From assembly GCA_963848965.1 (NCBI GenBank), contig CAWKFG010000004.1, positions 416,001 to 480,000 of the forward strand: DNA of 64,000 nucleotides, read 5' to 3'. The stretch comes from an uncultured bacterium (GTDB lineage Bacteria > Babelota > Babeliae > Babelales > Babelaceae). A program made the translations under genes and the position numbers. A model generated the notes under the pieces. The model did not search any database and had not been told where the DNA came from. It was given only the letters and a program-made list of their open reading frames with translations. The stretch's first letter is position 1. Each line of letters starts with the position of its first letter. Below, in pieces: positions 19,084-39,955 of this stretch.

Positions 19084-19228
19084 GACGAGCTTTAATATCT
19101 TAGTTAGAAACCAAGTAAATAAGCTAAAGATTTTATACTATAAGCTTGTGATATAAGTTTGTTCAAATCTTAACTTTGATATAATTATATGACTAATAAA
19201 ACTATCTGATCAAGGTTCTAAAGAAGAC

Positions 19229-19259
19229 TGGTGTCTCCTGCTATACATGTTTCGGAACC
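19229..19259 (+). repeat. att-like site R1 (31-bp core)
   Basis: TGGTGTCTCCTGCTATACATGTTTCGGAACC, preceded by GTTCTAAAGAAGAC. Confidence 0.9.
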
Positions 19260-19376
19260 GTGAGCTACTCTTTGAGGTCTATCTCACTAATATTCAAATC
19301 CCTGTAAATAACTGTCAGAGATGTTAAAGAGTCCCTAAACTAAAAATAGTAAAAGTAAGTATTTCATATAATCTTC

Positions 19377-19970: not shown

Positions 19971-19989
19971 GGAAAATCCTAAGCAAACG

Positions 19990-20418
19990 TTAAGCCAACA
20001 TATAGTCAACGGAAAATTCTGGAAATACTTCCTTTATCTTTGAAAGCATTGCTAGTGTAGGATTACATTTGCCAGCTTCTAGCCTTTGATAACTCCATAT
20101 TTTGTCAAATCCCATACGCTTTGCCAATTCTTGTTGAGTAAGGTTATGAGACATTCTGAAATATCGTATAAGAAATGAAAAGGCTATATTTGGATCTACC
20201 GGAACTTCTACAACACTTTTTGATGTCTTTATAGAAGCATCAGGAAATGGCGCTAAGTCTTTAGAATTCTCTGGTTCTTCTATATAAAGGTTTAAAGCTT
20301 CCTTCATATTAGCATAAAGCTCTTCCAAGCTATCTGCTTGCGTAACACAACCTTCTAATTCCAAGCAATGTGCCCAAAAGCCTTTTCCTTCTTTATGAAT
20401 TTTGAAATGATACTTCAT
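19990..20418 (-). CDS. hicB: HicB-family antitoxin with C-terminal HTH
   Basis: LEGCVTQADSLEEL...EAL; LTQQELAKRMG HTH. Confidence 0.85.
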   Translation of the reverse strand: MKYHFKIHKEGKGFWAHCLELEGCVTQADSLEELYANMKEALNLYIEEPENSKDLAPFPDASIKTSKSVVEVPVDPNIAFSFLIRYFRMSHNLTQQELAKRMGFDKIWSYQRLEAGKCNPTLAMLSKIKEVFPEFSVDYMLA

Positions 20419-20428
20419 GATTAGTTCC

Positions 20429-20613
20429 TTATTGAGCTGATTTTAATAATTTTCTAAGGTAATGTTCTGTTCCTTTTGCTAATTCTTTATGGTTCGGGAT
20501 AATGGCTTGTTTACAGCCCTTCTTTTTGAGCTTAATATGACTTCCTACTTGTCCCTCAATTCATAGCCAGCCTTTAAAAAAAGCTTAACCATATCCTTAC
20601 CACTAATTGGCAC
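20429..20613 (-). pseudogene. hicA: Frameshifted HicA toxin
   Basis: GGAGG RBS + GTG; MPISGKDMVKLFLKAGYE, then shift to GQVGSHIKLKK...IIPNHKELAKGTEHYLRK. Confidence 0.8.
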
Positions 20614-21018
20614 AAGTCCTCCTTTAATTAATAGTATAATTCTACCAAGTTTAATTGGCATTTGTCAAGGAGTTTAAATATGATATGACAAACTATCCTA
20701 AGACAATATTCGTCTATCTGCCTTCACTCGTCTATTTGTAGAAAAAGCAACTTCACAAATTTATGATGCAATAGAAAGCAATCCAAGGTAGCATATATAA
20801 CAAAACGCCAACATCTTATTGCTTGGATCATAGACACTACTAGGATGCTAACACGGATGCACTAGGACGCCACAGTACATCCTAGTGAATTACCAGGCAA
20901 CAAACTAAAGATAAAATTTTCTATAGCAGTTAGAGCTATGCTATAAGTTTGTTCAAATCACGATTTTGGTATAAATTTATAACAAATATATCGATATATT
21001 AACGATTCTTGAGAATAT

Positions 21019-21048
21019 TGGTGTCCCTTGCTTACATGTTTCGGAACC
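21019..21048 (+). repeat. att-like site R2
   Basis: TGGTGTCCCTTGCTTACATGTTTCGGAACC (1-nt deletion). Confidence 0.9.
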
Positions 21049-21391
21049 GGGAACTTGAATATGAGCCAAACATATACAGCAGCTTGGAATCATTCTACTC
21101 ATCGCTTAGCATTTAGACTAATAGTTGCTAACACTTAGAGGTTTATCTATCAACGCTTGCACTATATCAATAAGTTTTTTACTCTTGAGAAAGTTACTCA
21201 GCAGACTATACTAGGCTATATAAAACTTTTATGACCTAAACTATGGACTTATAATTTTATGGTAAAGATTAAAAAAGCAAAACCAAAATCCACGATCTCA
21301 CTTACGTTAGCTATGGGAATATAGCAAAGTCACCTTTCATAATGAAAAGCATATACTATCATAATTAATTTAACCCTATTGAGAAGCGATT

Positions 21392-21727
21392 ATGACTATT
21401 ACATACAAACAATTTGAGGATGTAGATATTAGAGTAGGTACTATCGTAAACGTTCAGGATTTTCCCGAAGCACGTAAGCCTGCCTATAAACTCTCTATCG
21501 ATTTTGGCAAATCCATTGGTATCAAAAGATCCTCTGCTCAAATAACACATCATTATACGAAAGAGCAACTGTTAGGGAAGCAAGTTTTAGCTGTCGTTAA
21601 TTTTCCTCCTCGCCAAATTGGTCCTTTTATGTCAGAAGTACTAACGCTGGGCTTACCTGACGAATCCGGTAATGTGGTACTTATTCAACCAACATTGACA
21701 ATTCCCAATGGAGGTAAACTTTTTTAA
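21392..21727 (+). CDS. csaA: CsaA-like tRNA-binding protein / export chaperone
   Basis: DIRVGTI...FPEARKPAYKL.IDFG...SSAQIT...VVNFPPRQIGPFMSEVLTLG. Confidence 0.9.
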   Translation: MTITYKQFEDVDIRVGTIVNVQDFPEARKPAYKLSIDFGKSIGIKRSSAQITHHYTKEQLLGKQVLAVVNFPPRQIGPFMSEVLTLGLPDESGNVVLIQPTLTIPNGGKLF

Positions 21728-21776
21728 AAGCTAGAGATTATTAAAGCCCCTTATTCCTTATATAAGAAAAAATTTA

Positions 21777-22283
21777 TTACTGCGATACCGTCGTATCGAT
21801 TGACGTATGCTCTAAATTGGCGCCTTGAAGATTCAGATTGATTAAAAAATTTACTATGCCTCGATTAAAATCTTGAACCATACTAACTCTTCCTCCAGGT
21901 AAAGAATCTCCCAATAATTGTATCACAAGTGCGCGAATCTTTGGAAAGTAATTAAATTTATTTGTTAACCTCACTGTATCATCTATACCTTTAATATATA
22001 AGCTGACTGCTTGTTCATTAGCTTCTGGAAGTATATCTGCTGGTTGCCATTCTGAGCTTAAGTTGAATCTTGTTGAGTGCCCAGATTTTAATAATTGCGG
22101 TCGCTTGAATTCAGTCGAGATTATATAATCGTTAGGTGTTTTATTAGAAACCTGTACAACAATATCAGGATATGCTCCTCTTAATGCAGCTATTACCTCT
22201 TTATCTGGTTCAGGCTCCATTCCTTTAATAGATAAAGGTAGAATATTTAGTAAACCAAAAATACATAAAAAAATTTTATTCAT
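21777..22283 (-). CDS. Hypothetical secreted protein
   Basis: AAGGA RBS, signal peptide followed by GMEPEP. Confidence 0.7.
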   Translation of the reverse strand: MNKIFLCIFGLLNILPLSIKGMEPEPDKEVIAALRGAYPDIVVQVSNKTPNDYIISTEFKRPQLLKSGHSTRFNLSSEWQPADILPEANEQAVSLYIKGIDDTVRLTNKFNYFPKIRALVIQLLGDSLPGGRVSMVQDFNRGIVNFLINLNLQGANLEHTSIDTTVSQ

Positions 22284-22452
22284 ATTGCATCCTTTTTATA
22301 AGCCCTATTAACAAATAAATATATATAATAAATTACAGATTAGTCAATATTAAACTAAATTTAATTATAAACCGTTGTCAGCAAAAGTTCTTGTTTAATT
22401 AACCCATATTTGATATAATGGGAAATATAATTATAAACGAAAGGATCTTATT

Positions 22453-22722
22453 ATGAAATCCATTTACGTAAAGGTTGATGAACGCAATCGTATAGCTTTA
22501 ACTAAGGCTACTAAAACTCCTTACAAAATTTACAAAATTCGCATGGAAGGCGAAACTATAATTCTCGAGCCAGTTATAGAGGCGCCAAAAGAGCAACATT
22601 GGTTATTTAAACCTGAGAATAAACATCTTTTGGCCCAACTTGAAGAGGGCTTAAAGCAAGAAGCTACCATATCTCGTGGTTCGTTTGCACAATATGCGAC
22701 TGACAATGAAGAAGATGAATGA
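22453..22722 (+). CDS. Putative AbrB-like antitoxin
   Basis: VDERNRI.L...G.TIILEP motif, acidic tail, overlaps downstream toxin-like gene. Confidence 0.65.
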   Translation: MKSIYVKVDERNRIALTKATKTPYKIYKIRMEGETIILEPVIEAPKEQHWLFKPENKHLLAQLEEGLKQEATISRGSFAQYATDNEEDE

Positions 22723-23008
22723 AATACGCTTTTCTCCTCGAGCTGATAAAAACATGCAAGATTTGGAAGATGATCCATCCAAGGAAAGAATACTCAAAGA
22801 TGTTAAAAAAGCTCTAGGATTTATGGAAACTAACTTAAGGCATCCTTCATTGCAAACTCATGAATTTGATGAAATGACAGGTCCTAATGGAGAAAAAGTC
22901 TTTGAAGCTTATGCTCAAAATAAGACACCGGGAGCATATAGGATATTCTGGTATTATGGACCGGGAAAAAACGTTATATCAATCATTGCAATTTTACCAC
23001 ATCCTTAA
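22715..23008 (+). CDS. Putative RelE/ParE-superfamily toxin
   Basis: NLRHPSLQTHE...VFEAYAQNKTPGAYRIFWYYGP...ILPHP. Confidence 0.7.
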   Translation: MNEIRFSPRADKNMQDLEDDPSKERILKDVKKALGFMETNLRHPSLQTHEFDEMTGPNGEKVFEAYAQNKTPGAYRIFWYYGPGKNVISIIAILPHP

Positions 23009-23134
23009 TAGGAATTAACAGTCATCAAGCCAAGAGATCAGAAAAGACCATTTATATACTAAAAGTGTCTTAATTAGAGCTTTTGATACATTTTACACCG
23101 AGTATATCGATCTAGAAATGGTTCTAAAGCAAGC

Positions 23135-23165
23135 TGGTGTCCCCTGCTGTACATGTTTCGGAACC
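23135..23165 (+). repeat. att-like site R3
   Basis: TGGTGTCCCCTGCTGTACATGTTTCGGAACC. Confidence 0.92.
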
Positions 23166-23222
23166 GTAAACTTGAATGTGAGATTTGTTTAGATGACATT
23201 AAAGTAATTTTTGTACAACCTA

Positions 23223-24377
23223 TTAAACCTTAATCTCTTTTAATATATTAAGTCCCCAGGCTGTACTCTTTTCACTTAATGGGAAATGAATATTGCCTGG
23301 GAAAATTACATACAAATGATCCAGTCTCAAATCTTCAAGTGCTATATGCATAGATTTTGTCATTTTAGGTGTATCACTGTACTTAAATTCAAAGCCTAAA
23401 CGCTTTCCACTTTTAAAGACAAATAGATCCAGCTCTGCTTTATTAGAAGTTGACCAAAAATAACAATCATCTGCTCTTATTTGCAAACAATTAATAACTT
23501 GCTCTAAAGCAAAACCTTCCCATAATGCCCCAATTTTAGGGTTTTTTGCTAACTCTGTAAGAGTATGAATAGAGGATAAGGTATTAAAAATACCACTATC
23601 TCTAAAATAGATTTTAGGCGTTTTTACTTGTCGCTTTTTTATATTTTCAAACCAAGGCTGCAAAACACGTATCATAAAAGTGCCTGCCAATATATCTAAG
23701 TATTTTTTTATTGTTTTATCTGACAACATTAAAGAATGTGCAATCTCATGAGCATTAAAGTACTGCCCATGATAAAAACAAAGCATCATCCAAAAGCGAT
23801 GCATTATTTTTGAGGGAACATCAAAACCAAAGTTTGGTAGGTCTTTCTCTAGAAAAGTGTTGATATATCCTTCTCGCCATAAAAAACTATCTTCCTCTGA
23901 TTGAGCTAAATAAGATCTCGGAAATCCGCCACGGATGAGTAACTTATCTGAATGATCAACTTCAAAAATGGTAAATGGAGGCAGCTCTATGTAGCCAATT
24001 CTTCCAGCTAATGTTTCTGATGATTGATGTATTAATTCTCTTGATGCGCTTCCCAAAATCAAAAATGAGTATTTTTTTTCTGGATCATCAACAAGTACTC
24101 GTAAAACTGGAAAAAGGTCTGGTCTACGTTGAATTTCATCTATAACAACAAGAAAGTTTTCATACTTGCTTAATGTAAGCATTGGATTTTCTAAGCTTGC
24201 TAAATGGATAGGATTTTCTAAGTCAAAAAACTCAACCTTACCAGTATATTGCTCAGAAAATTGACGCGCTAGTGTTGTTTTTCCTACTTGACGTGCTCCC
24301 AGAATTGCACATATTGGTTGTACCCTTAAATGTCTTTTAACTTGCTCTAAATATATTTTTCTTAGCATATTTTCCAT
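23223..24377 (-). CDS. AAA_14 + DUF4143 ATPase
   Basis: GARQVGKTT, IDEIQ, LGSAS, ETLAGR, KIYFRDSG, ELDL...FEFK. Confidence 0.9.
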   Translation of the reverse strand: MENMLRKIYLEQVKRHLRVQPICAILGARQVGKTTLARQFSEQYTGKVEFFDLENPIHLASLENPMLTLSKYENFLVVIDEIQRRPDLFPVLRVLVDDPEKKYSFLILGSASRELIHQSSETLAGRIGYIELPPFTIFEVDHSDKLLIRGGFPRSYLAQSEEDSFLWREGYINTFLEKDLPNFGFDVPSKIMHRFWMMLCFYHGQYFNAHEIAHSLMLSDKTIKKYLDILAGTFMIRVLQPWFENIKKRQVKTPKIYFRDSGIFNTLSSIHTLTELAKNPKIGALWEGFALEQVINCLQIRADDCYFWSTSNKAELDLFVFKSGKRLGFEFKYSDTPKMTKSMHIALEDLRLDHLYVIFPGNIHFPLSEKSTAWGLNILKEIKV

Positions 24378-24465
24378 GCAAATTCGGAACTATAGTCCAA
24401 TATTACATGGAACTATAGCAAAAGTCAAATGACTAGAATAATCTACCAGACATTCCAAGAAAGGC

Positions 24466-24496
24466 TGCTATCCTCTGCTTGGCATATTTCGGAACC
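24466..24496 (+). repeat. att-like site R4 (degenerate)
   Basis: TGCTATCCTCTGCTTGGCATATTTCGGAACC followed by GAGAGCTTTTGTTTGAGATTGATTTTAAAGA. Confidence 0.8.
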
Positions 24497-24557
24497 GAGA
24501 GCTTTTGTTTGAGATTGATTTTAAAGAGATACAAGCACTTCTTGCTTTACCTTTTCA

Positions 24558-25289
24558 TTAAAATACCATTGTACTTCTTTTATCTTTATTAAGCTTGCTA
24601 AGATATGGCCTTAAGAATCTAATAAATTTTTTTTCATTTGCTATACCTTCTTGAGTATATAAATTAAAGTGTGCCAATGAACGTTCATCTGAATCAATAA
24701 CCAAAAGAGTAACCGGCCTTTGAGGTAGATTTACTAAAGAAAATAGTACCCAGTGGTCACCTACGGTTACAACAAAGTATATTGCTTGTGGCTCTCTCTT
24801 AACCATGGCCATCAGGCGATTAAGTTCTTTATGTAATAAGTCATCCAAGTCTAAAGAAGTCTCTTTAGAATCAAGCAATGTGATTTCGTCCTTCTTTGCT
24901 GTCAAACATATGAGCTTATTTCCAATACCATTTTTATCTGCAAGTCTTTGTATGTGATAGTCCCAAAGGCCCTTATCCTTTCCATACTGAGTATATAGTT
25001 TCTTAAGTGCTTTCTGGTTTCGTAAACCAATTTTTAACACTTCTTTAAAATTACGTGGAGTTTTAAGAGCCTTTTCTATTGCAAGTGCATGAAAAACAGC
25101 CCGCAATCCACAAGACCATTCATCAGCCTGAGCTAGATAATTGCGTATTTGAATTACATTATGCCTAGTAAATTGTTTAGTAACAGTTATTACAAGCGGC
25201 TTACTGAGGGAAATAATATAACTTAACGGCTTGGCCGCTATTTCTGCTATAACTATTAAAAGAGATAAAATAACTATTACACTATTCAT
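24558..25289 (-). CDS. Secreted protein with a possible cysteine-protease triad
   Basis: Signal peptide; QADEWSCG...DHWVL...VIDS. Confidence 0.55.
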   Translation of the reverse strand: MNSVIVILSLLIVIAEIAAKPLSYIISLSKPLVITVTKQFTRHNVIQIRNYLAQADEWSCGLRAVFHALAIEKALKTPRNFKEVLKIGLRNQKALKKLYTQYGKDKGLWDYHIQRLADKNGIGNKLICLTAKKDEITLLDSKETSLDLDDLLHKELNRLMAMVKREPQAIYFVVTVGDHWVLFSLVNLPQRPVTLLVIDSDERSLAHFNLYTQEGIANEKKFIRFLRPYLSKLNKDKRSTMVF

Positions 25290-26016
25290 AATTATACCTT
25301 TGCCTTTAATAAATCACGCTTGCTTTGGCTCTTTGGTACTTTAAGAAAGCCTATAAACTGACAAAAAAATGGGTTTATTTACAAGATTTTAAGCTCTATT
25401 TCAAAAAAGGTTGGAATCTTTTGCGCTTGCTCAACTGCTAGAGCATGCAAGATGACATAGAGGTCACAAAACTAATTATCGTCTTGTGCTAACCTATAGC
25501 ATATGCGTTCAACATATTTTCTTCGTAATTTATTAAATAGGATAATAACAAAAGTATTAGCAAACTCAAACGCTTGGCTTATTCTTAAATTTTAATTAAA
25601 ATAATCGATAAATTTAGCAAAAGCACTATTGAAAACATAGAGGGATAAACTTGCTTCTTAATTGGAGCTAACGGTTCTATTAACAACAATAATTTGGATG
25701 ATATAGAAGAGCATGCTTAAATTTTACGATTAACCCCGAAAAGAATAGTGGCTCCATAGGTTGGGTATTCTTTATCCCCATAAAAGTAAAACGATAAAAT
25801 CTTTCAATGGTGATGCTTGATGGACGAAAAACACCAATAGAAGACTCTAAATTAAGGAAGTCAAATAGCCATCCTTGAGATGGCAACGCCCATCAACCAC
25901 TGCATCTTGCAGCGCACGTTGATTTAGATTTTTATTTGCAAATAAAATTGACATCTATTTTAATATTAGTTACTATAAGTAAGGAATTTAATGTTTTTAT
26001 AATGTAAGGTCTAACT

Positions 26017-27438
26017 ATGAAGATGTATGCGAAATTTCTCGTAACTGTATGCAGCCTAATGGCTTTCAGTATAATTGCTATGGAGAAAACTGCCGATCAA
26101 AAGAGCAATTACCGCGGACTAGCCATATCAATGACTGATGAGGTGCTACTAAGTAAGAGTAAAAGCACCGATCGTGAATTTATCAACCTTATCCAAAATG
26201 CATATCCTGAGATGAATTACTTGACCTCACCAGCGCATGCAAGCCCTGAAGGTCAGGCTAGTGCTCATGAATCTTCTCCTTCAAAGCTTCTATTTGGGAA
26301 GCAACATATAGAGTATGATCGTACTATTGTTGGTATTCTTGCTTTAAAATGGGTACTTGTAGACGATTATGATCACTTTGTTGAAGGGCAGCCGGAACAT
26401 ATTAAATTAAAAAGAGAAAGCTTTAACGAGCTGCGCACCTTAACGCTCAAGGTCATTAAAAATGGTATGCTCAACGCTTTAGTAACCTCGCTGGTCATCA
26501 ACGATTTAGGTAAAATAATCTCTTTTGTTAAAGAGGTTGAAGGACGAACGGGAATGAGTGAAGTTGACCATGATAACATTTTATTTACGGCCTTATTAAA
26601 GTATCCAGAACTTATTCCTAGCTTTACTCATTTAACAAGTGACCAACAAAAAACGATTCTTAAAAGTCTTGGCGCCCAGTTTAATTTAGGTCAGTTTGTT
26701 CGAGCAGAGAATCTTCCTGCAAGTTTAAAGGGCTTACAAGGGCTTAGCCAAGAAGAGCTCGATTTTAACAATATCCATGTATTATACGACCTTGCTGGCG
26801 CACGAGGTCACATTTCAAGTCAAGGTTCATTATTATTAACTGAACCTGTTTATCAATCCTTTATTACTGCTTTTAAGGTGTTTAATGAGATTGCACCTAT
26901 AACATGTAACCAAGATTTAACGCATATATACAATGCTTATCTAGCTTTACGAGCACGATCTTTAAATAGTAAGGATTCACTTGCGATACCAGAAAGCCGA
27001 GCTTTAGTCCGTATTGCATGTATGGTAGGCTCTAGTAATGATGCTGAGTTTACTAAAGTAAAAGATGCTTTTAATAAGTTATCCTATAAAGAACAAAAGA
27101 TACTTATTGATGAGCTTAATAAGACAGGTATTAATGATGTAGGTATTTTGCTCTATTATGCGCCAGCTATTCTTACTAATGCACGATCTACATCTCCCCA
27201 AGATTCGGAGTATAGCCTCCAAGTTGGGCTAAGATACTTAGCCAAAGTCTTTAAATTAGCACGAGCTTCCATTGCCGATGGACAGCAAGGCAGAGTGTAT
27301 ACGGTAGATTGTGCAGCTTTGGCCCAGGCAATAAAGGTCCCTCAAGAACTTGGATACTGTACCCTTGAGCTTAAGCCTGTAAATAATGATGCTCAAGTGG
27401 TAGTGCATGCTAAGCTATTAGGCGCTCCCTATAATTAA
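26017..27438 (+). CDS. Hypothetical secreted protein with HD-like motifs
   Basis: Signal peptide + AMEK; INDLGK...DHD...YDLAGARGH. Confidence 0.65.
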   Translation: MKMYAKFLVTVCSLMAFSIIAMEKTADQKSNYRGLAISMTDEVLLSKSKSTDREFINLIQNAYPEMNYLTSPAHASPEGQASAHESSPSKLLFGKQHIEYDRTIVGILALKWVLVDDYDHFVEGQPEHIKLKRESFNELRTLTLKVIKNGMLNALVTSLVINDLGKIISFVKEVEGRTGMSEVDHDNILFTALLKYPELIPSFTHLTSDQQKTILKSLGAQFNLGQFVRAENLPASLKGLQGLSQEELDFNNIHVLYDLAGARGHISSQGSLLLTEPVYQSFITAFKVFNEIAPITCNQDLTHIYNAYLALRARSLNSKDSLAIPESRALVRIACMVGSSNDAEFTKVKDAFNKLSYKEQKILIDELNKTGINDVGILLYYAPAILTNARSTSPQDSEYSLQVGLRYLAKVFKLARASIADGQQGRVYTVDCAALAQAIKVPQELGYCTLELKPVNNDAQVVVHAKLLGAPYN

Positions 27439-27494
27439 GCCTTATCCTTTGGTCTTATTTCTATCTAAAGCTTGAGCCCTTAGCAAAAGCCCTA

Positions 27495-27522
27495 TCAGAA
27501 CCGAGAACTTGAATTTGAGGTT
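27495..27522 (+). repeat. att-like site R5 (right arm only)
   Basis: TCAGAACCGAGAACTTGAATTTGAGGTT, near-identical to the R7 right arm. Confidence 0.75.
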
Positions 27523-28455
27523 ACCCTTCATAACGATCTTGAAGCTTTCCTAACCCTTATTCAGGCTAGAATGGTAAATACTTAACGCTATATCCGAACT
27601 CCTGATACGTACGCTTGCAATATATCTATAATTTTTTTACGCTTAAATAAACATCTGACAGACTTTTATTAGGCTAATAAAGCTATTCCTATGGTAAAGA
27701 TTAAAAAAGCACAATTATCAAGTAATAAAGATTTAGGTTCCTTGCTTAATGAGGATTACTTTCAGACCTTGGAGGATCTCAAACAAAAGATCAGGCAAGC
27801 TCAACTGAGAGCATCCCTGTCCGTGAACTTAGAACTTATTAAGCTTTACTAGGAAATCGGCCACACTATTGTCCAAAAGCAAGAAAGCAACGGTTGGGGT
27901 GCCAAGATCATCGATAGTTTTGCTAAGGATTTGCAGGCAGCTTTCCCCGGAATTGAAGGATTTTCCTGCACTAATATCTTCTATATGAGAGCCTTTTATC
28001 TATCTTGTGAAATTGTCCAACAGCTTGTTGGACAATTGTCAGATTTACCGTTCTTTAAGATTCCATGGGGCCACAATGTAACGCTAATCAGCAAGCTCAA
28101 ACATAACGATCAGCGTATATGGTATGCTAAAAAAGCAATAGAAGATGGGTGGAGCAGGCAGGCACTTGAACGAATGATTAAATCTGATCTCTATAGCAGA
28201 CAAGGTAAAGCTATTACTAACTTTAATGAAAAGCTTCCTAATCCTCAATCTCATCTTGCCAACGATATATTAAAATCACCTTATAATTTTGACTTTCTTA
28301 CCTTAACATCTGAATATGATGAACGAGAGCTTGAGCAAGGGCTAGTAGATCATATACAAAAGTTCCTTATAGAATTAGGCAAAGGCTTTGCTTTTGTAGG
28401 AAGGCAATATCATATAGAAGTTGAAGGCAGAGATTATTATATAGATTTGCTCTTT

Positions 28456-30776
28456 GTGCGATCCGCAAGTCTTGCGCTTTCGATGCAAGATGAACTACTG
28501 ACACCGTGGTGGCTCAATTCCACCTCCCTTGATATCGGGGTAACAGTATGACCCACACATTAAGAACTGGTAAATCTTACTGTGCAAGCATGGGGCAAAA
28601 AGGGAGTAACTCTGAACTCAACAGAGAAATCCTCTCAAACAGAGTTAGACATGGTTACGCGAGAAACCTGTGTCTGAACCGTCGTAAGGTCGTGATGTGC
28701 GAATGAGTTGATACGCACAAACCAAAAGGTAATGAGGTGCAAGAGGAGTCAGGAATGAATAGGCCTGATTAAGATATTCTCGAGCCTCCGGCGGAAAGCA
28801 GGAACCTACATCTAACGCGAAACGGTATTCAGTGGAACGGAGTAACCATTATAACGCTCTTAAAAAAAAAATAAGCAGGTACCAGCCGCATGCGCTATAA
28901 TGGAGGGATTATCTCAGAAGCAAATGCCTAGAATAACAGCTAGGATAGGCTAACAGAGATACAGTAACTTAGAAGGTAAAGTTATGAGTAGCGGTACAAA
29001 CGTCATGAACCAATCAAAGATTAGGTATGAATGGAAAGACATACCATGGCAAAAAAAGCTAGAGGTATCAGTCTTCAAGCTGCAAAAGCGAATTTACCGA
29101 GCCTCACAACGTAATGATACCGTTATGGTGCATAGGCTACAAAGACTGTTGATCAAATCAACAAGCGGAAAACTACTTGCGGTCAGAAGAGTAGTGCAAG
29201 AAAACCTGGGCAGAAAGACTGCTGGGATAGACGGTATTGCAAACATCACACCAAGGGAACGTCTACGTCTAGCCGAAACGCTAACTCTCGACACTGATAG
29301 TAAACCAGTCAGGCGCGTTTGGATACCAAAACCGGGGAAAACAGAAAGGCGGCCTCTGGGGATACCTACAATCACAGATAGAGCGAAACAGGCACTTCTA
29401 AAACTGGCTCTAGAGCCTGAATGGGAGGCCAAGTTCGAGCCAAACAGCTATGGGTTCAGGCCTGGACGGTCATGCCATGACGCTTATGGAGCAATCTTCG
29501 AAGCTCTCAAAAGAAAAACTGCATACGTACTTGATGCAGATATATCTGGATGCTTTGATAACATTGACCACAACGAATTATTGAGAAAGCTAAACACGAC
29601 GCCAACGACGCAACGAATAGTGAAAGGATGGCTAAAGGCTGGAGTAATGGAAGGGAGTGTGTTTCAAACAACTGAGCGAGGAACACCCCAAGGGGGAGTG
29701 ATATCTCCATTACTAGCGAACATAGCTCTCCACGGAATGGAAGACGACACGAAGAAAGCCCTTGCCAACGAGCTCTTCCAATATGCAAAAGGAAAACGAG
29801 GCAAAACGGCCCATCTTCATGCACAAAAGACCATCAGCATAATTCGATACGCCGATGACTTCGTAATAACTCATGAAAGCAAAGACATTGTACTAAAGGC
29901 TAGCTCCTATATTGAAGGATGGCTCAACAATATTGGCCTACAACTAAAGCAATCAAAAACTAGAATGACTCATACTCTGAATTGGAGCGAAGATCAGAAG
30001 CCTGGCTTTAACTTCCTAGGCTTCACAGTCAGACAGTTCTCGGTCAAACAAAGCAAGAAAGGCTACAAACTATTAATCAAGCCAAGTCGAGAATCAATGA
30101 AACGACACGCAAAAGCGATCAAAGAAATGCTTCGGTCCGTAAGAGCGGCACCACAAGAAACCGTTATCAGTAAGCTGAATCCCATTGTGAAAGGGTGGAG
30201 CAGATACTTCGCAGTTGGCGTATCACGCAAAGCATTCGAACGGTTAGACCATGATATGCATCACAAGCTTTGGCGATGGGCAAAGTATAGACATCCGCAA
30301 AAGGGAAAGGGATGGATCATACGAAAGTACTTCCGCAAGTATGGCAATGACGTATGGAGATTCATGACTCATGAGCAAATGTTTCTTGCTCGCCATAGCG
30401 ACCAACTGATAAGGCGACACGTGAAGGTGAAAGGAACCAAATCACCCTACGATGGAGATATGGTATACTGGGCTACACGGCTGGGTAGATCGCTAGAGCT
30501 ACCAGTAGCGATAACAAAACTACTGAAAACGCAGAAAGGCAAATGCAAAGTATGCAGGTTCTGGTTCAAAACAGAAGACTTGATGGTAGTTCACAAAAAC
30601 ACAGGTAAAAGCAACAAGAGAGAAGATGTCAAACTTATTCACCAAAGCTGTCATTAATAAAAAAAATGAGGTATATGTATCAAAATACTAAGCTACTGAG
30701 GAGCCGTATGAATCGAAAGATTCACGTACGGTTCTGGAGTCGAGCAGAGAAAGTCGCCTTTCTCTGCTTAGATAAC
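28456..30776 (+). mobile_element. Group II intron
   Basis: 5' GTGCG; domain V GAGCCGTATGAATCGAAAGATTCACGTACGGTTC; domain VI hairpin; 3' AAC; flanking exons join in frame. Confidence 0.95.
28984..30657 (+). CDS. ltrA: Intron-encoded reverse transcriptase/maturase
   Basis: RPLGIPT..DR, YGFRPGRS, GTPQGGVISPLLANI, RYADDF, NPIVKGW; eroded HNH tail. Confidence 0.95.
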   Translation: MSSGTNVMNQSKIRYEWKDIPWQKKLEVSVFKLQKRIYRASQRNDTVMVHRLQRLLIKSTSGKLLAVRRVVQENLGRKTAGIDGIANITPRERLRLAETLTLDTDSKPVRRVWIPKPGKTERRPLGIPTITDRAKQALLKLALEPEWEAKFEPNSYGFRPGRSCHDAYGAIFEALKRKTAYVLDADISGCFDNIDHNELLRKLNTTPTTQRIVKGWLKAGVMEGSVFQTTERGTPQGGVISPLLANIALHGMEDDTKKALANELFQYAKGKRGKTAHLHAQKTISIIRYADDFVITHESKDIVLKASSYIEGWLNNIGLQLKQSKTRMTHTLNWSEDQKPGFNFLGFTVRQFSVKQSKKGYKLLIKPSRESMKRHAKAIKEMLRSVRAAPQETVISKLNPIVKGWSRYFAVGVSRKAFERLDHDMHHKLWRWAKYRHPQKGKGWIIRKYFRKYGNDVWRFMTHEQMFLARHSDQLIRRHVKVKGTKSPYDGDMVYWATRLGRSLELPVAITKLLKTQKGKCKVCRFWFKTEDLMVVHKNTGKSNKREDVKLIHQSCH

Positions 30777-31259
30777 TATCACACAAAGCTTAAATGCTAT
30801 ATAGTTGTAGAATTAAAGGCACGAGAATTTGACCCTCGCGATATTGGCCAACTTAACTTCTATATATCAGCAGTTGATGATTTAGTACGTGATTCAGAGG
30901 ATAAACCAACCATAGGTTTGCTTCTGTGTAAGACAAAAAGAAACTTTACTGCTGAATATGCTCTACGAAATATAAGCTCGCCTATCGGGATTGCTCAATA
31001 TACTACTCTAACAGAAAAACTACCAAAAGAACTTAAAGGAAGTCTTCCAACAATTGAAGAAATTGAGGCCGAGCTTGAAAGGCAGGAAATTTTACTAGAA
31101 AAAGAATAGAGTGAACTTTAATACTTTAGTTAGAAGTCAAGTAAATACGCTGAAGATAAGATCCTCTAAGGTAAGTTTTTAATATAAGCCCGTTCCAATC
31201 TTAATTTTGATATAGCACCATGTCAAATACATTCATCTAATCAAAATTCTAAAGAAGAC

Positions 31260-31290
31260 TGGTGTCCCCTGCTATACATGTTTCGGAACC
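31260..31290 (+). repeat. att-like site R6 (consensus)
   Basis: TGGTGTCCCCTGCTATACATGTTTCGGAACC. Confidence 0.92.
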
Positions 31291-31546
31291 CTAAGCTCTT
31301 GTTTGAGGTTGACCTTAAAGAAATTCCGGTGATTTTAAACCTGCTAGAAAAGTAATTTTGATATAATAAGAACTTAGTCTTTTAAGCAAACAGTCCCTAA
31401 AAAGTATGCTACAAACTACAAAATCGTACACAAAAGCTATTTATCGCTTATCGTATAGAACCTTGAACAAATTAATTAAACACAGTATTATAAGTGATAC
31501 GATAATCTGGGAATTGGATTCCCAGATTGCAAGCAAGGAGTTTTAT

Positions 31547-32734
31547 ATGATTAATAGAGAACTAAACCACTCTTTGGTTAAAGCAGCAAATGAATTTCCT
31601 GTAGTTGCTGTATTGGGCCCACGGCAATCTGGCAAAACAACTTTGGTTCAAACAACTTTCACCGATCATAGGTATGTCTCCTTAGAAGATTTTGACTTGC
31701 GGAACCTAGCAAATCGAGATCCTCGAAGATTTTTACAAGATTACCCTAGTCAAAGCGGCATTATTCTAGATGAAGTACAACATGCTCCCCAGCTTCTTTC
31801 TTATATTCAAACCACAGTCGACCGTGAAAAAAGAAAAGGATATTTTATTCTCACTGGCTCTCAGAATTTGCTAATGAATGAGGCGATAACACAAAGCCTT
31901 GCTGGTAGAATTGCACTTTTAGACCTTTTTCCGCTATCCATAAGTGAACTTGAGCATGCTTCATTACTACCCCAAAAAATAGAAGAGGTTGTTTTTAAAG
32001 GAAGCTATCCCAAAGTTTATGCAGAGGATCTTTCTCCTGAAAAAATATATGCTAATTATATCCGAACCTACATAGAAAGAGACGTTCGTCAAATTAAAAA
32101 TATTACAGATCTTACTCTCTTTCAACGCTTTGTTCAATCATGCGCAGGAAGGACTGGGCAGACACTTAATCTTTCATCATTAGGTAATGATGTGGGAATA
32201 GATCATAAAACAGCACGTGCTTGGCTTTCTGTACTTGAGGCTACCTATATTGTTTTTTTGCTCTACCCTTACTATAAGAATTATGGAAAACGCCTTATTA
32301 AAGCACCTAAACTTTATTTTGTAGATACAGGGATCGCCTGCTCACTTTTAAATATCAGGTCTCCAGAGGTTATAATTGAACACTACATGAGAGGTCATCT
32401 CATTGAGTCTTTTATCATTTCAGATTTATTTAAGCAATACTATAACCTCGATCAAAGGCCATCCTTATATTTTTGGAAAAACCATCAAGGTAATGAAATC
32501 GATTGTATTATAGAGGAAGCCTTATACACAATCCTCATTGAAATTAAAGCAGGTAAAACTATCGCTAGTGATTTTTTCACAGGATTTGGTTATTGGAAAA
32601 ATATAACGAAATCTCCTTCACGTAATTTTGTTATCTATGGCGGTTCAGAAAACCAAAACTGGCCCGAAGCAAAAGTAATAAGCTGGCAATCGTCCGGCAG
32701 CCTGATCAAGAACATTAATAAGGGGCAATTTTGA
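31547..32734 (+). CDS. AAA_14 + DUF4143 ATPase
   Basis: GPRQSGKTT, LDEVQ, LTGSQ, QSLAGR, KLYFVDTG, EID...IEIK; AAGGAG RBS. Confidence 0.9.
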   Translation: MINRELNHSLVKAANEFPVVAVLGPRQSGKTTLVQTTFTDHRYVSLEDFDLRNLANRDPRRFLQDYPSQSGIILDEVQHAPQLLSYIQTTVDREKRKGYFILTGSQNLLMNEAITQSLAGRIALLDLFPLSISELEHASLLPQKIEEVVFKGSYPKVYAEDLSPEKIYANYIRTYIERDVRQIKNITDLTLFQRFVQSCAGRTGQTLNLSSLGNDVGIDHKTARAWLSVLEATYIVFLLYPYYKNYGKRLIKAPKLYFVDTGIACSLLNIRSPEVIIEHYMRGHLIESFIISDLFKQYYNLDQRPSLYFWKNHQGNEIDCIIEEALYTILIEIKAGKTIASDFFTGFGYWKNITKSPSRNFVIYGGSENQNWPEAKVISWQSSGSLIKNINKGQF

Positions 32735-32825
32735 AAACAAAAAGCCTTCAATAATTCATTGAAAAGCGATTAAGTAAAGTCTAAGCTGCTGAGATTTAAG
32801 AACTGTCTGGCGTTCTAAAGAAATT

Positions 32826-32856
32826 TACTGTCCCCTGCTATGCATATTTCGGAACC
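32826..32856 (+). repeat. att-like site R7
   Basis: TACTGTCCCCTGCTATGCATATTTCGGAACC. Confidence 0.88.
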
Positions 32857-32966
32857 GAGAACTTGAATTTGAGGTTGATCTTAAAGATATCAAACACTAT
32901 TTTACACTATAAAGCTCAGCAACTGCTTGCTATGTTTCTAGACAGTTAATCTTGCACTTTTGGTTA

Positions 32967-33791
32967 CTACTTCCCACCAGATATCTCTTTCCTAGATTTC
33001 CAAGGTTTTCCTGGTAGTAGGCTTACCAATTGCTCACTAACCATTTGGAATGCCTCATTTGAAGACCATATTGATTGATCAGCAATCAAATGTACTATAT
33101 CATTTTGAAAATCAGGATTTTGTTGTTTTTCAAATAAGTTCTTTTCAAACTCCGCGCGAGTAATTGATAGCCCTTCATTACCGCAATACTTTTTAAAGAT
33201 ACTTATTACAGCTTCACAATCAATTAACTCTTTTTTCAAGACAAACCATATATCATAAAGATCTCTTCCTTTACTTCTTTGATATAATGCTCTTAACTTT
33301 GTTCCAATAAGTTCATTAAGCTGGTAAGTTTTAATAGCTGACTTACCAGAAAACCATGTGCTCGCTATAGCAAACTCATAATCTATTAAATCATAAACAC
33401 TAAAATGTTCTGTTGTGTTTATTTCGATTTTTAGTTTGCGCTGTATATTATCGATAGAGCTATATTGATAGGTTAACTTAGCACTTCTGTTAGTAAGTTT
33501 GCCCTTAGGCTGCCCCAACCAAGACAAAGCGGTACGGATCTCGAGAATAAGCGGCCCTATAGGTTGAGAGGTAATTTGAACAAGATCAATATCCTCACTA
33601 TAACGCAATGGAGGCTTAAAAAATAACTTATTAAGAGCTGTTCCTCCTCTAAAAACTAAATTTTCCCTAATTTTTTCACGCTCATATAAGTTTATTAACG
33701 CTCGACTGATAATTAAATCCTGCTCTACTTGATAATCAGCTATCCATGGTACATGCTGTCGCCATTCTGATAAGTAAAAAGTTTCAATCAT
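32967..33791 (-). CDS. abiEii: AbiEii-family nucleotidyltransferase toxin (type IV TA)
   Basis: EQDLII, FRGGTALNK, RYSEDIDL, KLRAL..R.KGRDLYD. Confidence 0.9.
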   Translation of the reverse strand: MIETFYLSEWRQHVPWIADYQVEQDLIISRALINLYEREKIRENLVFRGGTALNKLFFKPPLRYSEDIDLVQITSQPIGPLILEIRTALSWLGQPKGKLTNRSAKLTYQYSSIDNIQRKLKIEINTTEHFSVYDLIDYEFAIASTWFSGKSAIKTYQLNELIGTKLRALYQRSKGRDLYDIWFVLKKELIDCEAVISIFKKYCGNEGLSITRAEFEKNLFEKQQNPDFQNDIVHLIADQSIWSSNEAFQMVSEQLVSLLPGKPWKSRKEISGGK

Positions 33792-34582
33792 ATATCACCT
33801 TCTAGCTTGGTGTTTTCAATGATTTTCCAAGTTTCATTTCTTTTTGCTTTACTGAGTTTTGCCTTAAGGCCAGTATGAAGCATCACATAATTAACTCTTG
33901 GTTGTTTTGACAAGTGCTCTTTTATTACGCTTGCCAGGTTTTTTGCTCCAATAAATTCCAAAATATAACCTAGGCGTTGTTTCCAAGGAGTTCCAGGTAG
34001 GTTCTCTATAACTGATTTTAGCCCTTCCTCGGTCATGCTTTCTTTAAGCTCAGCAAGAATTGTGGTTATATTGTTTAAGCCACCACTTTGTTTTACAAAT
34101 TTAATAAGATCTACTGCTGTAGCTTCTGGACTTGAAACCCTAAGTTTACTCTTCAGCGTAGAGAACCAAGTAACAGGAACCTTTTCAATCTCTTGGTTCT
34201 TGATAAAGTTAATTTTAACCTTACCGCAAACTACAGAGCGCAATTTCTTTTCAGTAACTACTTGAAAAACCTGAGGAGCTTGATGTGATGCTCCGTAATA
34301 GCTAGCGGCTGTAATTAAACCTGCATAGTACTTATACCCTAAGTATTCCATTAAATAGGGAATAAACTGATCAGCGGGAATACACTCAAGAATCTTATAT
34401 TCCGGTGGTATTATCACGTAAAACCCTTTTACTGGACTAACGATTTCTCCTTTACCAATAAGGCGAGAAATGGCATGAAGTATAGCATTCCTAGATTTAT
34501 TGAGCTCTTTATAAGCACTATTTATAGTAAAGTAGCATCTACCATAGGCAACTTGCTTGTTTAAATATTCCTTAATCTTCAT
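33788..34582 (-). CDS. abiEi: AbiEi-family antitoxin
   Basis: GFYVIIPPEY, YYAGLITAA.YYGASHQAPQ, SSPEATAVD; 4-nt overlap with abiEii. Confidence 0.88.
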   Translation of the reverse strand: MKIKEYLNKQVAYGRCYFTINSAYKELNKSRNAILHAISRLIGKGEIVSPVKGFYVIIPPEYKILECIPADQFIPYLMEYLGYKYYAGLITAASYYGASHQAPQVFQVVTEKKLRSVVCGKVKINFIKNQEIEKVPVTWFSTLKSKLRVSSPEATAVDLIKFVKQSGGLNNITTILAELKESMTEEGLKSVIENLPGTPWKQRLGYILEFIGAKNLASVIKEHLSKQPRVNYVMLHTGLKAKLSKAKRNETWKIIENTKLEGDI

Positions 34583-34603
34583 AATTAACAAATTCATTTT
34601 AAT

Positions 34604-34626
34604 AAAATGCCTAAAATCGGCATTTT
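34604..34626. promoter_or_regulatory. Inverted repeat upstream of abiEi, candidate autorepression operator
   Basis: AAAATGCC-N7-GGCATTTT. Confidence 0.5.
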
Positions 34627-35002
34627 GTGCAAACAAAAACGAAGCTAATACTATAATACTTTATGGGCTAAATTTGTCAAAAAATACTCAAAAGTACGCG
34701 TTCCTTAACCCTCTTAGGAGAAAATAAGTAGCTTTTGCTGAATGATTTAAGAACCGAAAATTTTATCTTTGCAACGTCGAAGAAATAATAATTTTAACAA
34801 GCCAGATCTTACATTACCTAGATGTTCATGAAAAAAGCAATTTTACAAAATATCAGCACTTTAGCAATAAAGCTTCATATTTAATAAATATGCATTAAAG
34901 CGCTTCACGAAGACCTTATACTATAATTATATAGTGAATTACATTGAACTGATCTAGTTTCTAAAGAAGGTTGGTGTCCCCTGCTTGTATATTGAAATTA
35001 TG

Positions 35003-35162
35003 TTCCTAAATTTGAGACGTTAAGTTTAGGAAAGCTAGCAGGAGCCTGTTCCCCTGCCTGGTTTTTAAAACCGAGTGTCAACTTAGGACCTGCTAGCATA
35101 TATAGTACAGCTCGAACAATCGAGTGGGACAAGGATCCCGTATACAAAACCGAGGCACTATA
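35003..35162 (+). ncRNA. Bridge RNA of the IS110 element
   Basis: 5' stem-loop; target loop with CCCCTGC; donor loop with ACAATCG and TATACAA. Confidence 0.85.
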
Positions 35163-36106
35163 TGAATACTATATCACATATTTTTGTCGGCATCGATATC
35201 TCTAAAAAATTTTTAGATATTCACTTACATCCTGTGGCTAAAGACTTTAGAGTTGCTAACTCACAAGCTGGAATCAATAAACTCATTCAAGTACTTTCTG
35301 CTTATACTGTCGTACAGATCGTTTTTGAGTCTTCTGGTGGTTACGATTTCCTTCTCAAGCAAGAACTTAGCATTAATAATTATAATGCTTGGCAAGTTCA
35401 GCCTAGACGCATTAGAGCCTTCATCATCTCTGAAGGCATTAAGGCTAAAACTGATAAAATTGATGCTCAAATGATTGCTCTCTTTGCTTCTCAAAAACGG
35501 CCTAAATATCATGAGATTATTCGTTCTCAAGACGAGCTAAAGCTCTGTGCTCTCGTCAAATTCAGGACTAACATTGTCCGAAACATTGTTCAAGAAACCA
35601 ATAAATTGCAGCATCCTCAACAAGTTTACTGTAAAAATTTTCTTGAAGCTCATATCTCCTTTATGGAAAGACAGTTACAGGAAGTTGAACAAGAAATTGA
35701 ACAGCTGATCCAAGACAATGAATCTCTTAATAAAAAATGCCATATTATTGAGTCTATGCCTGGTATCGGCAAAGTCACTGCCTGCTCTTTGCTTGCAGAA
35801 ATGCCTGAGCTTGGCAAAGTCGGTAATAAGCAAATAGCCGCTATTCTAGGTGTAGCACCTTTTATTAAGCAAAGTGGTGGATCTAAAGGCACTGCATCAA
35901 TTAGCGGTGGTAGACAAGCTACCCGTGATATCCTTTATATGGCTACATTAGCAGTTATCAGATTTAATCCTGCACTTAAATGCTTTTATAAACGGCTACG
36001 CACTGTTGGTAAAAAAGCTAAAGTTGCTCTCATTGCTGTTATGCGAAAGGTTATTGGTATTTTAAATGTTATGGTTCGAAAAGGAGAACAATGGCAAACT
36101 ACTTAA
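35162..36106 (+). CDS. IS110-family DEDD recombinase
   Basis: GIDISK, FESSGGY, KTDKIDA, PGIG, QSG. Confidence 0.95.
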   Translation: MNTISHIFVGIDISKKFLDIHLHPVAKDFRVANSQAGINKLIQVLSAYTVVQIVFESSGGYDFLLKQELSINNYNAWQVQPRRIRAFIISEGIKAKTDKIDAQMIALFASQKRPKYHEIIRSQDELKLCALVKFRTNIVRNIVQETNKLQHPQQVYCKNFLEAHISFMERQLQEVEQEIEQLIQDNESLNKKCHIIESMPGIGKVTACSLLAEMPELGKVGNKQIAAILGVAPFIKQSGGSKGTASISGGRQATRDILYMATLAVIRFNPALKCFYKRLRTVGKKAKVALIAVMRKVIGILNVMVRKGEQWQTT

Positions 36107-36318
36107 AATAATTTTTAAACTTGTTGACTTTTAACACAATCGTTTACATGTTTCGGAACCGGAAGCTCATTTTTGAATTTGATCTTAAAGATATTCAATC
36201 AATCATTGCTTCATACAATTTTAGCTTATATTGAAAACTTATATAATAAGCTTTCGATGGTTTACTTCTTCTAGGTATCAGCATTAGAAGGATAAAAAAG
36301 GTAAAACTTCTAGGGATT

Positions 36319-37305
36319 TTACTCTTTTGCGCCATATTTTTTAAGTAACTCTACTATATCTGAATGACCTTTTTCTGTAGCAAGCATTAAAGCAGTTTCG
36401 CCAAACCTATTTCGTACATTAACTTCAGCACCTTTAGCTAAGAGCATTTGAACTATATCTTTATGGCCACCTCGTGTAGCATGCATTAAAACAGTACTTG
36501 TATACAGATCTTTAGCATTAACATCAGCACCAGCCTTAATCAGAAGTTCTACTACCTCTTTATGACCATTTCTTGCAGCGTCCATTAAAGCGGTAAATCC
36601 CACAATATTATCTCGAGCGTTAATATCAGCACCAGCTTGTATAAGCATTTCTACTATTTCTTTATAGCCTTTCACTGCGGGCCTCTTTAAAGCACTATAA
36701 TTATCTTTAGTTTTAACGCCAATGTTAGCATCAGCCCCTTTCTCTAGAAGCAACGCTACAATTTCTCTATAGCCGTTTTGTGCAGCATAATACAAGGCAG
36801 TGCAGCCAAACATTTCCTCTTGAGTATCAATATCACTAATACCTTTACTTAAAATATCTCTTACTTTTTCAATATTTCCCTTTCCAGACGCTTCAATAAG
36901 CCTTAAAGCATTAGGATGTAGCTCTAGCAATTTTTGTGCACTTTGAACTCCACGATTTTCAAGGTCTTTTAGTATCCAATTGGGTTTATATTGTCGAGCA
37001 TACGCTTTTCGTTTTAACTCATTGAGAAGGAATCTCACAAGATCTACATTATCAAATAAGGCTTTATAGTTTTCATTCCTTGCCAATTCTTCTATTTTCT
37101 TAAGAGCTTCAGAAAATGTTTTTGATGACTCTAGAGTTTCTTTGATACTACACTCTAAAGCCTCTCTGATTTTATTATATACTACAAAATGGTTCAGCTC
37201 TTTCCTCAGCTCTTGCGGCAAGTATTCTAGATAACTCTTTTGCTTTTGCATCCCAAGACCAGACGTAAAAAATCCTAACAATAAGATAACTATTACCTTT
37301 TTCAT
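36319..37305 (-). CDS. Ankyrin repeat protein with signal peptide
   Basis: About six ankyrin repeats; GMQK after signal; YLPQEL motif. Confidence 0.92.
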   Translation of the reverse strand: MKKVIVILLLGFFTSGLGMQKQKSYLEYLPQELRKELNHFVVYNKIREALECSIKETLESSKTFSEALKKIEELARNENYKALFDNVDLVRFLLNELKRKAYARQYKPNWILKDLENRGVQSAQKLLELHPNALRLIEASGKGNIEKVRDILSKGISDIDTQEEMFGCTALYYAAQNGYREIVALLLEKGADANIGVKTKDNYSALKRPAVKGYKEIVEMLIQAGADINARDNIVGFTALMDAARNGHKEVVELLIKAGADVNAKDLYTSTVLMHATRGGHKDIVQMLLAKGAEVNVRNRFGETALMLATEKGHSDIVELLKKYGAKE

Positions 37306-37550
37306 GCTTAATTTTCTTTCCAATATTTTTACTGTTATGATTTTATTATAGTTCATAAAGGCACAAGATTCAACTAGCAATTAACTTCTAATGTTAAAAA
37401 GAATAAAACCTTATGCGTTCTAGTTGATTTTAAGAAACAAGCTAGATAAAGGATCTTTCATTAAGCATACGATACAAAATACTCAAATTAGTGATCTTTG
37501 ATGTAAGCCTATGCTAGAAATGTTTTTCTATTCAAGGTTCTAAAGAATAT

Positions 37551-37581
37551 TGGTGTCCCCTGCTATACATGTTTCTGAACC
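37551..37581 (+). repeat. att-like site R9
   Basis: TGGTGTCCCCTGCTATACATGTTTCTGAACC. Confidence 0.92.
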
Positions 37582-37663
37582 AAAAGCTTGAATTTGAGAC
37601 CTGTTTAGATGATATCAAACAGTTTTATCTAGCCTTCAACATTTAGTAAAGTAATTTTTAATA

Positions 37664-39878: not shown

Positions 39879-39955
39879 TGGTGTGCCCGGTAGGATTCGA
39901 ACCTACGACCTACGGATTAGAAATCCGTTGCTCTATCCAGCTGAGCTACGGGCAC
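39879..39955 (-). tRNA. tRNA-Arg(TCT)
   Basis: 77-nt cloverleaf GTGCCCG...TTTCTAA...GGTTCGAATCC...CGGGCACACCA. Confidence 0.96.

Follow-up and report, generated by a model that had tools for sequence, protein, structure and literature searches.

The window analysed here is a stretch of 64,000 nucleotides (positions 416,001 to 480,000 of contig CAWKFG010000004.1, assembly GCA_963848965.1) from an uncultured bacterium of the family Babelaceae (Babelota), and it lies on contig C4 of a genome of 1.73 Mb in 5 contigs. It holds an insertion sequence (IS) of 1,157 bp at 34986-36142 on the + strand, which carries a single gene, for a recombinase, and which splits R8, one of the repeats of a gene-cassette array. 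A sequence-only reading had described this IS as an IS110 element whose bridge RNA is programmed against the array's repeats, and every string that it listed proved to be present in the DNA. We conclude that the element is an active-looking IS of the IS110 group that moves by bridge-RNA-guided recombination, a reading to which we assign a probability of about 0.87.

The recombinase and the RNA of the left end

The 314-aa recombinase combines an N-terminal DEDD RuvC-like domain with a C-terminal Tnp domain that bears the catalytic serine, as in the IS110 family (Pfam PF01548, 3.1e-19, and PF02371, 2.5e-19, both exceeding the cut-offs). Among solved structures in PDB, and compared by protein sequence alone, its closest match is the ISCro4 bridge recombinase (9t56; E 3e-34, residues 8-308); IS621 follows with E 4.3e-31 (8wt6). 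Residues D12, E56, D98, D101 and S238-G239 align opposite D11, E60, D102, D105 and S241-G242 of IS621 (the PDB chain numbering of IS621 is shifted by two), and all five catalytic residues, D11, E60, D102, D105 and S241 as named in PMC11208158, are kept. The non-coding left end measures 176 nt, as against 36 nt on the right, and contains the RNA, which is the layout of the IS110 group. There are no terminal inverted repeats between the ends TGTATATTG and ACAATCG, and both junctions have only TT in common, with no target-site duplication beyond this 2-bp core.

Folding of the 168 nt from 34998 (34998-35165) gave a minimum free energy (MFE) of -53.9 kcal/mol (z = -4.52), and none of 200 shuffles was equally stable. 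The fold starts with a 5' hairpin; GCUAGCAGG/CCUGCUAGC then close an internal loop, and a second structured module follows. Relatives of the recombinase were gathered from the same order (a match in 19 of 201 genomes, 38-57% identity), the same family (5 of 41 genomes), species-representative genomes (21 loci, best 43%) and metagenomes (80 loci). The 150 nt upstream of their genes visibly align, with constant stems and variable loops. We built a covariance model from the left ends of 20 relatives, using a hand-drawn structure, and ran it over 79 sources; it returned 35 matches, every one upstream of a recombinase gene, including 35014-35164 in the element itself. Paired cells made up 77.3% of the alignment, compared with 59.9% in column shuffles (0 of 500 reached the observed value) and at most 51.1% when partner columns were slid by 1-3. 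Changes on both sides of a pair, that is compensatory changes, occur in 23 of 24 stem pairs across the 35 elements. Pairing reaches 83% and 95% in target-loop helices 1 and 2, all 12 pairs of which have compensatory changes, 95.7% in the donor-loop hairpin and 63% in the target loop's inner hairpin.

The left end therefore holds two internal loops closed by covarying stems, and the IS621-type layout that had been read from the letters was upheld by model matches upstream of 35 related genes, by stem covariation and by loops that track each element's own flanks. An earlier RNAalifold run on a plain MAFFT alignment had recovered just 9 pairs and was superseded by the hand-drawn structure with the covariance-model alignment. 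Rfam yielded nothing relevant, either in the window (gathering search) or in 34800-36300 (E<=10).

Guides, occupied sites and the core

The guides are arranged as in IS621, the 5' guide of each loop in top-strand sense and the 3' guide as its reverse complement (Table 1). In loop 1 the 5' side reproduces the top strand of the left target and the 3' side complements the right target; loop 2 matches the element's own joined ends, and these donor guides, like the ends, are conserved in the relatives. The target-loop stem and the left guide CCCCTGC proposed earlier are both there, and this guide agrees with the window site at 7 of 7 positions, or 8 of 8 counting the preceding T: TCCCCTGC in the left flank is identical to RNA 35050-35057 (8 nt). 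The donor-loop assignments hold as well, with ACAATCG equal to the right end and TATACAA (35141-47) the reverse complement of the sequence at the left junction. As a chance test, the left-end interior was shuffled 20,000 times. The numbers of shuffles that equalled the matches were 112 for the 8 nt shared with the left flank, 1,478 for the 7 nt shared with the right end and 1,852 for the 7 nt that match the left end in reverse complement; a single shuffle equalled all three.

The target of the window copy is an array repeat. The two halves of R8 match the profile of the intact repeats (34949-34985, E 1.9e-7; 36145-36176, E 3.4e-6), and the rejoined flanks fit four intact copies with 1-2 mismatches, where 100 shuffles led to an expectation of 0, which bears out the previously noted split at CCCCTGC-TT-TACAT. 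The genome contains three full copies of the IS, 100% identical but with different flanks: the one in the window and two on contig C1 (C1:396673-397829 and C1:386023-387179). Those on C1 occupy a diverged version of the array repeat, which reads ...TGG(C/T)(A/G)CCCCCTAC-TT before the IS and TT-GACGCATTCAGGAAC... after it. A solo right-end remnant of ~25 nt (C1 ~387980) is joined to TT-GACACATTCAGAACC just past the end of a gene, and a diverged 3' fragment of a related IS (C1:407856-407925, locus L004) adjoins another such repeat. All three copies and both remnants sit in one family of tRNA-3'-end-like repeats.

At the C1 sites the left target guide agrees at 6 of 7 positions plus a G-T wobble, and the right target guide pairs with TT+GACGC through one U-G wobble; at the C1 remnant, TT-GACACATTCAGAACC (TT+GACAC) is its exact complement. 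To place these matches in the genome, every position was scored (Watson-Crick pair 1, wobble 0.5; 3,452,340 positions). The rebuilt C1 sites score 13.0 each, a value that one position reaches, and the rebuilt window site scores 12.5, a value that four positions reach.

Among the genome's four top-scoring guide matches is one without an insertion. This empty repeat at C1:392649 (also C3:3985) scores 12.5 and reads TGGCGCCCCCTGC-TT-GACTT, followed by a GGTGCTA/TAGCACT hairpin.

A further copy, ~93% similar (78 differences over 1,187 bases), was found in contigs of three public sequencing runs and sits in the same type of repeat. Its flanks match those of the window copy for 11 and 19 bases and then become a different repeat unit, and the outer flanks differ. 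Apart from this copy, which occurs solely in metagenome contigs, none of 244 genomes holds a relative closer than 57% identity. The metagenome contigs that hold it contain no circle junction or empty-site joint, and at most 9% of the sampled words are present in any one public run. Specialisation on this site family, as the sequence-only reading had proposed, is thus supported by three copies, two remnants and the metagenomic relative, all in such repeats, and by guides that rank the sites at the top of the genome.

The relatives allow the same comparison at other sites, one that the sequence-only reading had suggested. Those from the same order (loci L027-L061; genomes G157, G166, G033, G064, G140, G143 and others), at 38-57% protein identity, have an alignable bridge RNA, the right end TTGACTTTTAACACAATC(A/G) and the left end TGTAT(G/A/C)TT; their target loops differ, varying from element to element, and match other sites, tracking each element's own flanks. 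A longest left-flank match of at least 6 nt was found in 17 of 24 cognate pairs and 71 of 646 non-cognate pairs, and a right-flank match of that length in 10 of 24 and 100 of 647, respectively; in this test there is dependence among the sites of a single element, and targets are shared between some elements. Some guides were read by eye. The left donor guide of the relatives repeats the right end (e.g. ACAAUCA-CU), and the right donor guide complements the core plus TGTA. In 12 of 14 distinct relatives the nucleotide that follows the right donor guide is complementary to target position 7, switching between G and C, and of the other two one has a wobble and one a mismatch; this 'handshake' geometry has been published for IS621 (PMC11208158). 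As a separate observation, the nucleotide that follows the relatives' right target guide changes along with the final base of the right end, C occurring with G and U with A.

The right junction reads TT at four loci, namely the three copies of this element and its sister element L036, and CT at each of the 22 other loci of relatives for which a right end could be located; there, the right end TTGAC(T)TTTAACACAATC(A/G) is followed by CT. AA occurs in both right guides solely in this element and L036. In the other relatives the right donor guides all carry AG, as do the right target guides where readable. Because AA right guides and TT right junctions coincide in this element and L036 only, the recombining core reads as TT, in agreement with the sequence-only reading, and not as the CT of IS621 and of all other relatives examined. 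A TT core engineered into IS621 is said to have worked poorly.

By homology with IS621, excision would join the right and left ends, with the predicted circle junction ...TTGACTTTTAACACAATCG-TT(T)-GTATATTGAAA. The joined ends would create a sigma-70-type promoter, TTGACT and TATATT with a spacer of 16-17 nt, which would transcribe a bridge RNA of ~160 nt from the left end. The spacer of 16 nt given by the sequence-only reading holds for the window copy; the two C1 copies, with one more T, give 17 nt. In relatives the corresponding halves, TTGAC on the right and TATGTT on the left, are spaced by 17 nt. The two sequence halves suggest this rebuilt promoter. In sequence, loop 1 bears the target guides, CCCCUGC(CU) on its 5' side and GUGUC(AA) on its 3' side, and loop 2 bears those for the element's own joined ends, ACAAUCG and UAUACA(AA). 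The programmed target, CCCCTRC-TT-GACRC, is found within the tRNA-3'-end-like repeat family. The C1 copies occupy near-perfect sites, and the window copy a repeat with a full left and a poor right guide match.

Table 1. Positions in the window of the element, its RNA, guides, ends and interrupted repeat
Feature	Position	Strand	Sequence or basis
Insertion sequence	34986-36142	+	100% identity over 1-1157 in three genomic copies
Left half of R8	34949-34984	+	Ends in left target CCCCTGC 34978-34984; profile match
TT at left junction	34985-34986	+	Core in the register of the sequence-only reading; T34986 is the first base of left end TGTATATTG by homology
Putative -10 half	34988-34993	+	TATATT; relatives have TATGTT at the same place
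Bridge RNA 5' stem-loop	35003-35032	+	MFE fold
Target-binding loop module	35034-35097	+	Fold, covariance model, string check
Target-loop outer stem	35034-42 / 35089-97	+	GCTAGCAGG / CCTGCTAGC, exact reverse complements
Target-loop inner stem	35045-47 / 35085-87	+	CCT / AGG
Left target guide	35051-57, 35058-59	+	CCCCUGC, then CU
Target-loop inner hairpin	35060-72	+	
Right target guide	35075-79, 35080-81	+	GUGUC, then AA (core complement)
Donor-binding loop module	35111-35154	+	Fold, covariance model, string check
Donor-loop stem	35111-14 / 35151-54	+	CTCG / CGAG
Left donor guide	35116-22, 35123-24	+	ACAAUCG, then AG; identical to right end 36136-42
Donor-loop hairpin	35126-39	+	
Right donor guide	35141-46, 35147-48	+	UAUACA, then AA; complement of TT+TGTATA
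Recombinase gene	35162-36106	+	314 aa; DEDD RuvC-like and Tnp domains (Pfam)
36-nt right end	36107-36142	+	Holds TTGACT 36124-29; terminates in left donor ACAATCG 36136-42
Putative -35 half	36124-29	+	TTGACT; TTGAC...ACAATC conserved in relatives' right ends
Core TT and right half of R8	36143-36176	+	TT 36143-44, then TACATGTTTCGGAACC...; profile match 36145-36176

Points of tension and alternative readings

Several observations weigh against bridge-guided insertion as set out above. The covariation alignment was fitted to its own model from related sequences, and the outer stem of the donor loop, as drawn, has poor support (47% paired). At the core, the AA of the right guides fits TT, whereas the left guides leave it unpaired (CU and AG in the target and donor loops, respectively), and pairing to both core strands is strongly preferred in IS621 (PMC11208160). 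The right target match of the window site is at chance level, its longest exact run of 4 nt being equalled in 19,992 of 20,000 shuffles. The 'handshake' base A35149 pairs with neither type of site. The window copy has one T fewer at its left junction than the C1 copies (CCCCTGC-TT-GTATATTG versus CCCCTAC-TTT-GTATATTG), and if its left end is read as TGTATATTG, its target becomes TCCCCTG-CT-TACAT, which scores 8.0, with 39,150 positions as good. There are no RNA runs among the public runs listed.

The core positions of the relatives' left donor guides read CT, TT, AT, CA, AA, CC or AG; because they vary in this way although the right junction is CT where read, relaxed core pairing by the left guides is a trait of the clade. 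For the right target, the window half TACAT agrees with the right target guide at 3 of 5 positions beyond the TT core, plus one G-T wobble. The right guide GTGTCAA (35075-81) of the sequence-only reading is present and fits the C1 sites, but its match to the window site is no better than chance; this makes the array a half-matched target, the RNA being a better fit to the C1 version of the site. We suggest that the window copy is such a 'half-matched' insertion, of a kind reported for IS621 (bioRxiv 10.64898/2026.08.31.748434).

The left junction is where the most serious alternative arises. The right junction of the window copy reads ACAATCG-TT-TACATG, and relatives have their core followed by TGTATGTT on the left. 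The window left end may have lost its first T, and either form could pair with the four A's of the right donor guide. Because the metagenomic ~93% copy shows no indel at that junction, the difference is unlikely to be an error of assembly. The same element might instead be read in another register, the window copy having used a CT core for recombination, in a repeat shorter by one base, TCCCCTG-CT-TACATG as at 20995. In that case the core at the left junction would be the target's (CT) and that at the right junction the donor's (TT), and the empty R8 would have been CCCCTGCTTACATG, compared with CCCCTGCTTTACATG for the 15-nt form. We regard this as unlikely, though it deserves serious weight. 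It needs no missing base, the left end being TGTATATTG as in the C1 copies and TGTATGTT in relatives, and the metagenomic relative without an indel is in its favour. The top strand of IS621 is cut 3' of the core, which gives the target core to the left junction and the donor core to the right one (PMC11208158), and a like asymmetry is seen in L036 (left CT, right TT) and L027 (left AT, right CT). One intact array repeat also has the short form, with CGG after GGAACC as in R8. However, the CT register puts the left guide one base out of phase, so that the site scores 8.0 in place of 12.5, the 8-nt identity TCCCCTGC would need bulged pairing, and the insertion point falls one base off the homologous point at C1. 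The TT register remains the more probable one for the window copy.

Both registers invoke guided insertion. Alternatively, the copies might have spread by duplication or homologous recombination of repeat-plus-IS blocks, the guide-like matches being incidental. The repeats are themselves recombination substrates, and contig C3, a 99.55% copy of the 9.5 kb that separate the C1 copies, shows that rearrangement occurs around these elements. Yet the IS copies are 100% identical although the repeats around them differ (CCCCTGC..TACATG versus CCCCTAC..GACGCA), and the left flanks of the two C1 copies are unrelated past ~15 nt, which argues against block duplication. The guides place the occupied sites at the top of the genome, against an incidental match, and relatives with other loop sequences occupy other, matching sites. 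We consider spread by such blocks very improbable.

The last alternative concerns the nature of the sites. No stable hairpin emerged when four intact units were folded as single-stranded DNA (five foldings, z -1.6 to +1.07). The genome search found only two tyrosine-recombinase (PF00589) genes, at C1:311 kb and C1:501 kb; neither is on C4, both are >70 kb from the C1 copies, and neither site cluster has one nearby. The lack of a fold and the distance of these genes indicate that the repeats are not attC-like, and no integron integrase lies close to them. IS1111-attC and IS4321-IS5075 are IS110-family elements specialised on one recurring recombination-related site; they carry the RNA in the right end together with subterminal inverted repeats, and their targets are attC hairpins or Tn21 inverted repeats. 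That the element belongs to the IS1111 group and recognises folded hairpin sites, as its position inside a repeat separating gene cassettes might suggest, is the least probable alternative of all, since it has its RNA in the long left end and a right end of 36 nt, opposite to the IS1111 layout (PMC11208160), and its target repeats do not fold. The comparison with IS1111-attC elements drawn by the sequence-only reading serves as an analogy only. Its claim that the sites are a real recurring target stands for this IS; for att sites of another recombinase, our findings offer no support.

The array, its neighbours and the place of the element among known systems

A profile of the four intact units recovered nine units in 19205-37601, one of them degenerate and partial, and a partial match overlapping the 3' end of tRNA-Arg(TCT) at 39879-39955 on the - strand. 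The array units read ...TTCTAAAGAAGnnTGGTGTCCCCTGC-TA-TACATGTTTCGGAACC... and resemble the reverse complement of the tRNA-Arg acceptor end plus its downstream flank. With up to 3 mismatches, the exact array repeat occurs in 0 of 40 other genomes of the family. The array as a whole (19205-39955) ends at tRNA-Arg(TCT), and its cassettes encode AbiEi/AbiEii, Fic with helix-turn-helix (HTH), two DUF4143 ATPases, His_Phos with HTH, a tRNA-binding protein and an ankyrin protein. The bridge recombinase could itself shuffle the array, as an RNA-guided analogue of an integron anchored at tRNA-Arg: cassette excision and reinsertion by target-to-target recombination is conceivable because the direct repeats all carry the left-target match and no integrase is present. 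We hold this idea to be a long shot.

Other features of the window and genome are recorded here in their own right. Within one array cassette, a group II intron (reverse transcriptase/maturase 28984-30657, domain V 30698-30776) splits a YhcG/DUF1016 PDDEXK nuclease gene (27931-31109, +) into an N-terminal part (27931-28551) and a C-terminal part (30666-31109). At 8159-9707 (-), a 446-aa RRXRR and HNH protein (PF14239, 2.3e-67) is encoded directly downstream of a HEARO RNA (Rfam RF02033, 134.7 bits, 9484-9707), the pair forming an RNA-guided nuclease locus of the IscB/OMEGA type. Eukaryote-like domains, consistent with an intracellular lifestyle, occur in several ankyrin-repeat proteins and in one WD40 protein (240-1010, 11817-13383, 36319-37380). 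Contig C3 (9,474 bp) corresponds to C1:387180-396639, with 25 mismatches and 14 gaps; the two C1 IS copies that bound this segment lie in direct orientation, and the end of C3 falls precisely at the IS flank. C3 may represent a second haplotype, a duplication or a circle bounded by the IS.

One of the closest described systems is IS621 of E. coli, whose bridge RNA was reported by Durrant et al. 2024 (PMC11208160) and Hiraizumi et al. 2024 (PMC11208158). Both elements have a DEDD-plus-serine recombinase with the same catalytic residues, an RNA in the long left end that runs from a 5' stem-loop through the target loop to the donor loop, a promoter (putative in our element) split across the joined ends, and a repeated intergenic sequence as target. 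They differ in that protein identity is ~30% at most (an approximate value), that the core is TT here and CT in IS621, with the left guides unpaired at the core in our element, and that its right target guide has a potential pairing of 7 nt, core included. Our element targets a tRNA-end-like repeat, and IS621 targets REP (PMC11208160). All insertions of ISPpu10 of Pseudomonas putida are likewise in copies of one conserved intergenic repeat, but its target has a GC-rich stem-loop that adds specificity, unlike the repeats studied here, which have no stable fold (bioRxiv 10.64898/2026.03.19.712850). IS110 elements specialised on one repeated intergenic site are thus already known, as IS621 on REP and ISPpu10 show. 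The same-order relatives differ from our element in their CT core, L036 excepted. A full-text search found no paper on IS110 in Dependentiae.

Judged by its sequence, the element has the traits examined for the IS110 family, the IS110 group and the IS621-type bridge RNA, save for core pairing by the left guides. It is clearly a new example of the bridge-RNA mechanism described in 2024, and no new mechanism. Its interest lies in a bridge-recombinase system that occurs in nature, has probably been active recently and belongs to a lineage that has been little studied. It uses a TT core and leaves the core unpaired on both left guides. One RNA apparently serves a site in two diverged versions, by way of wobble pairs (G-T and U-G) and a half-matched insertion, and such cases supply concrete natural evidence on the rules that govern bridge-RNA specificity and off-targeting. 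In this genome, insertion of the IS accounts for the split R8, and the tRNA-end-like repeats are hot spots for this IS.

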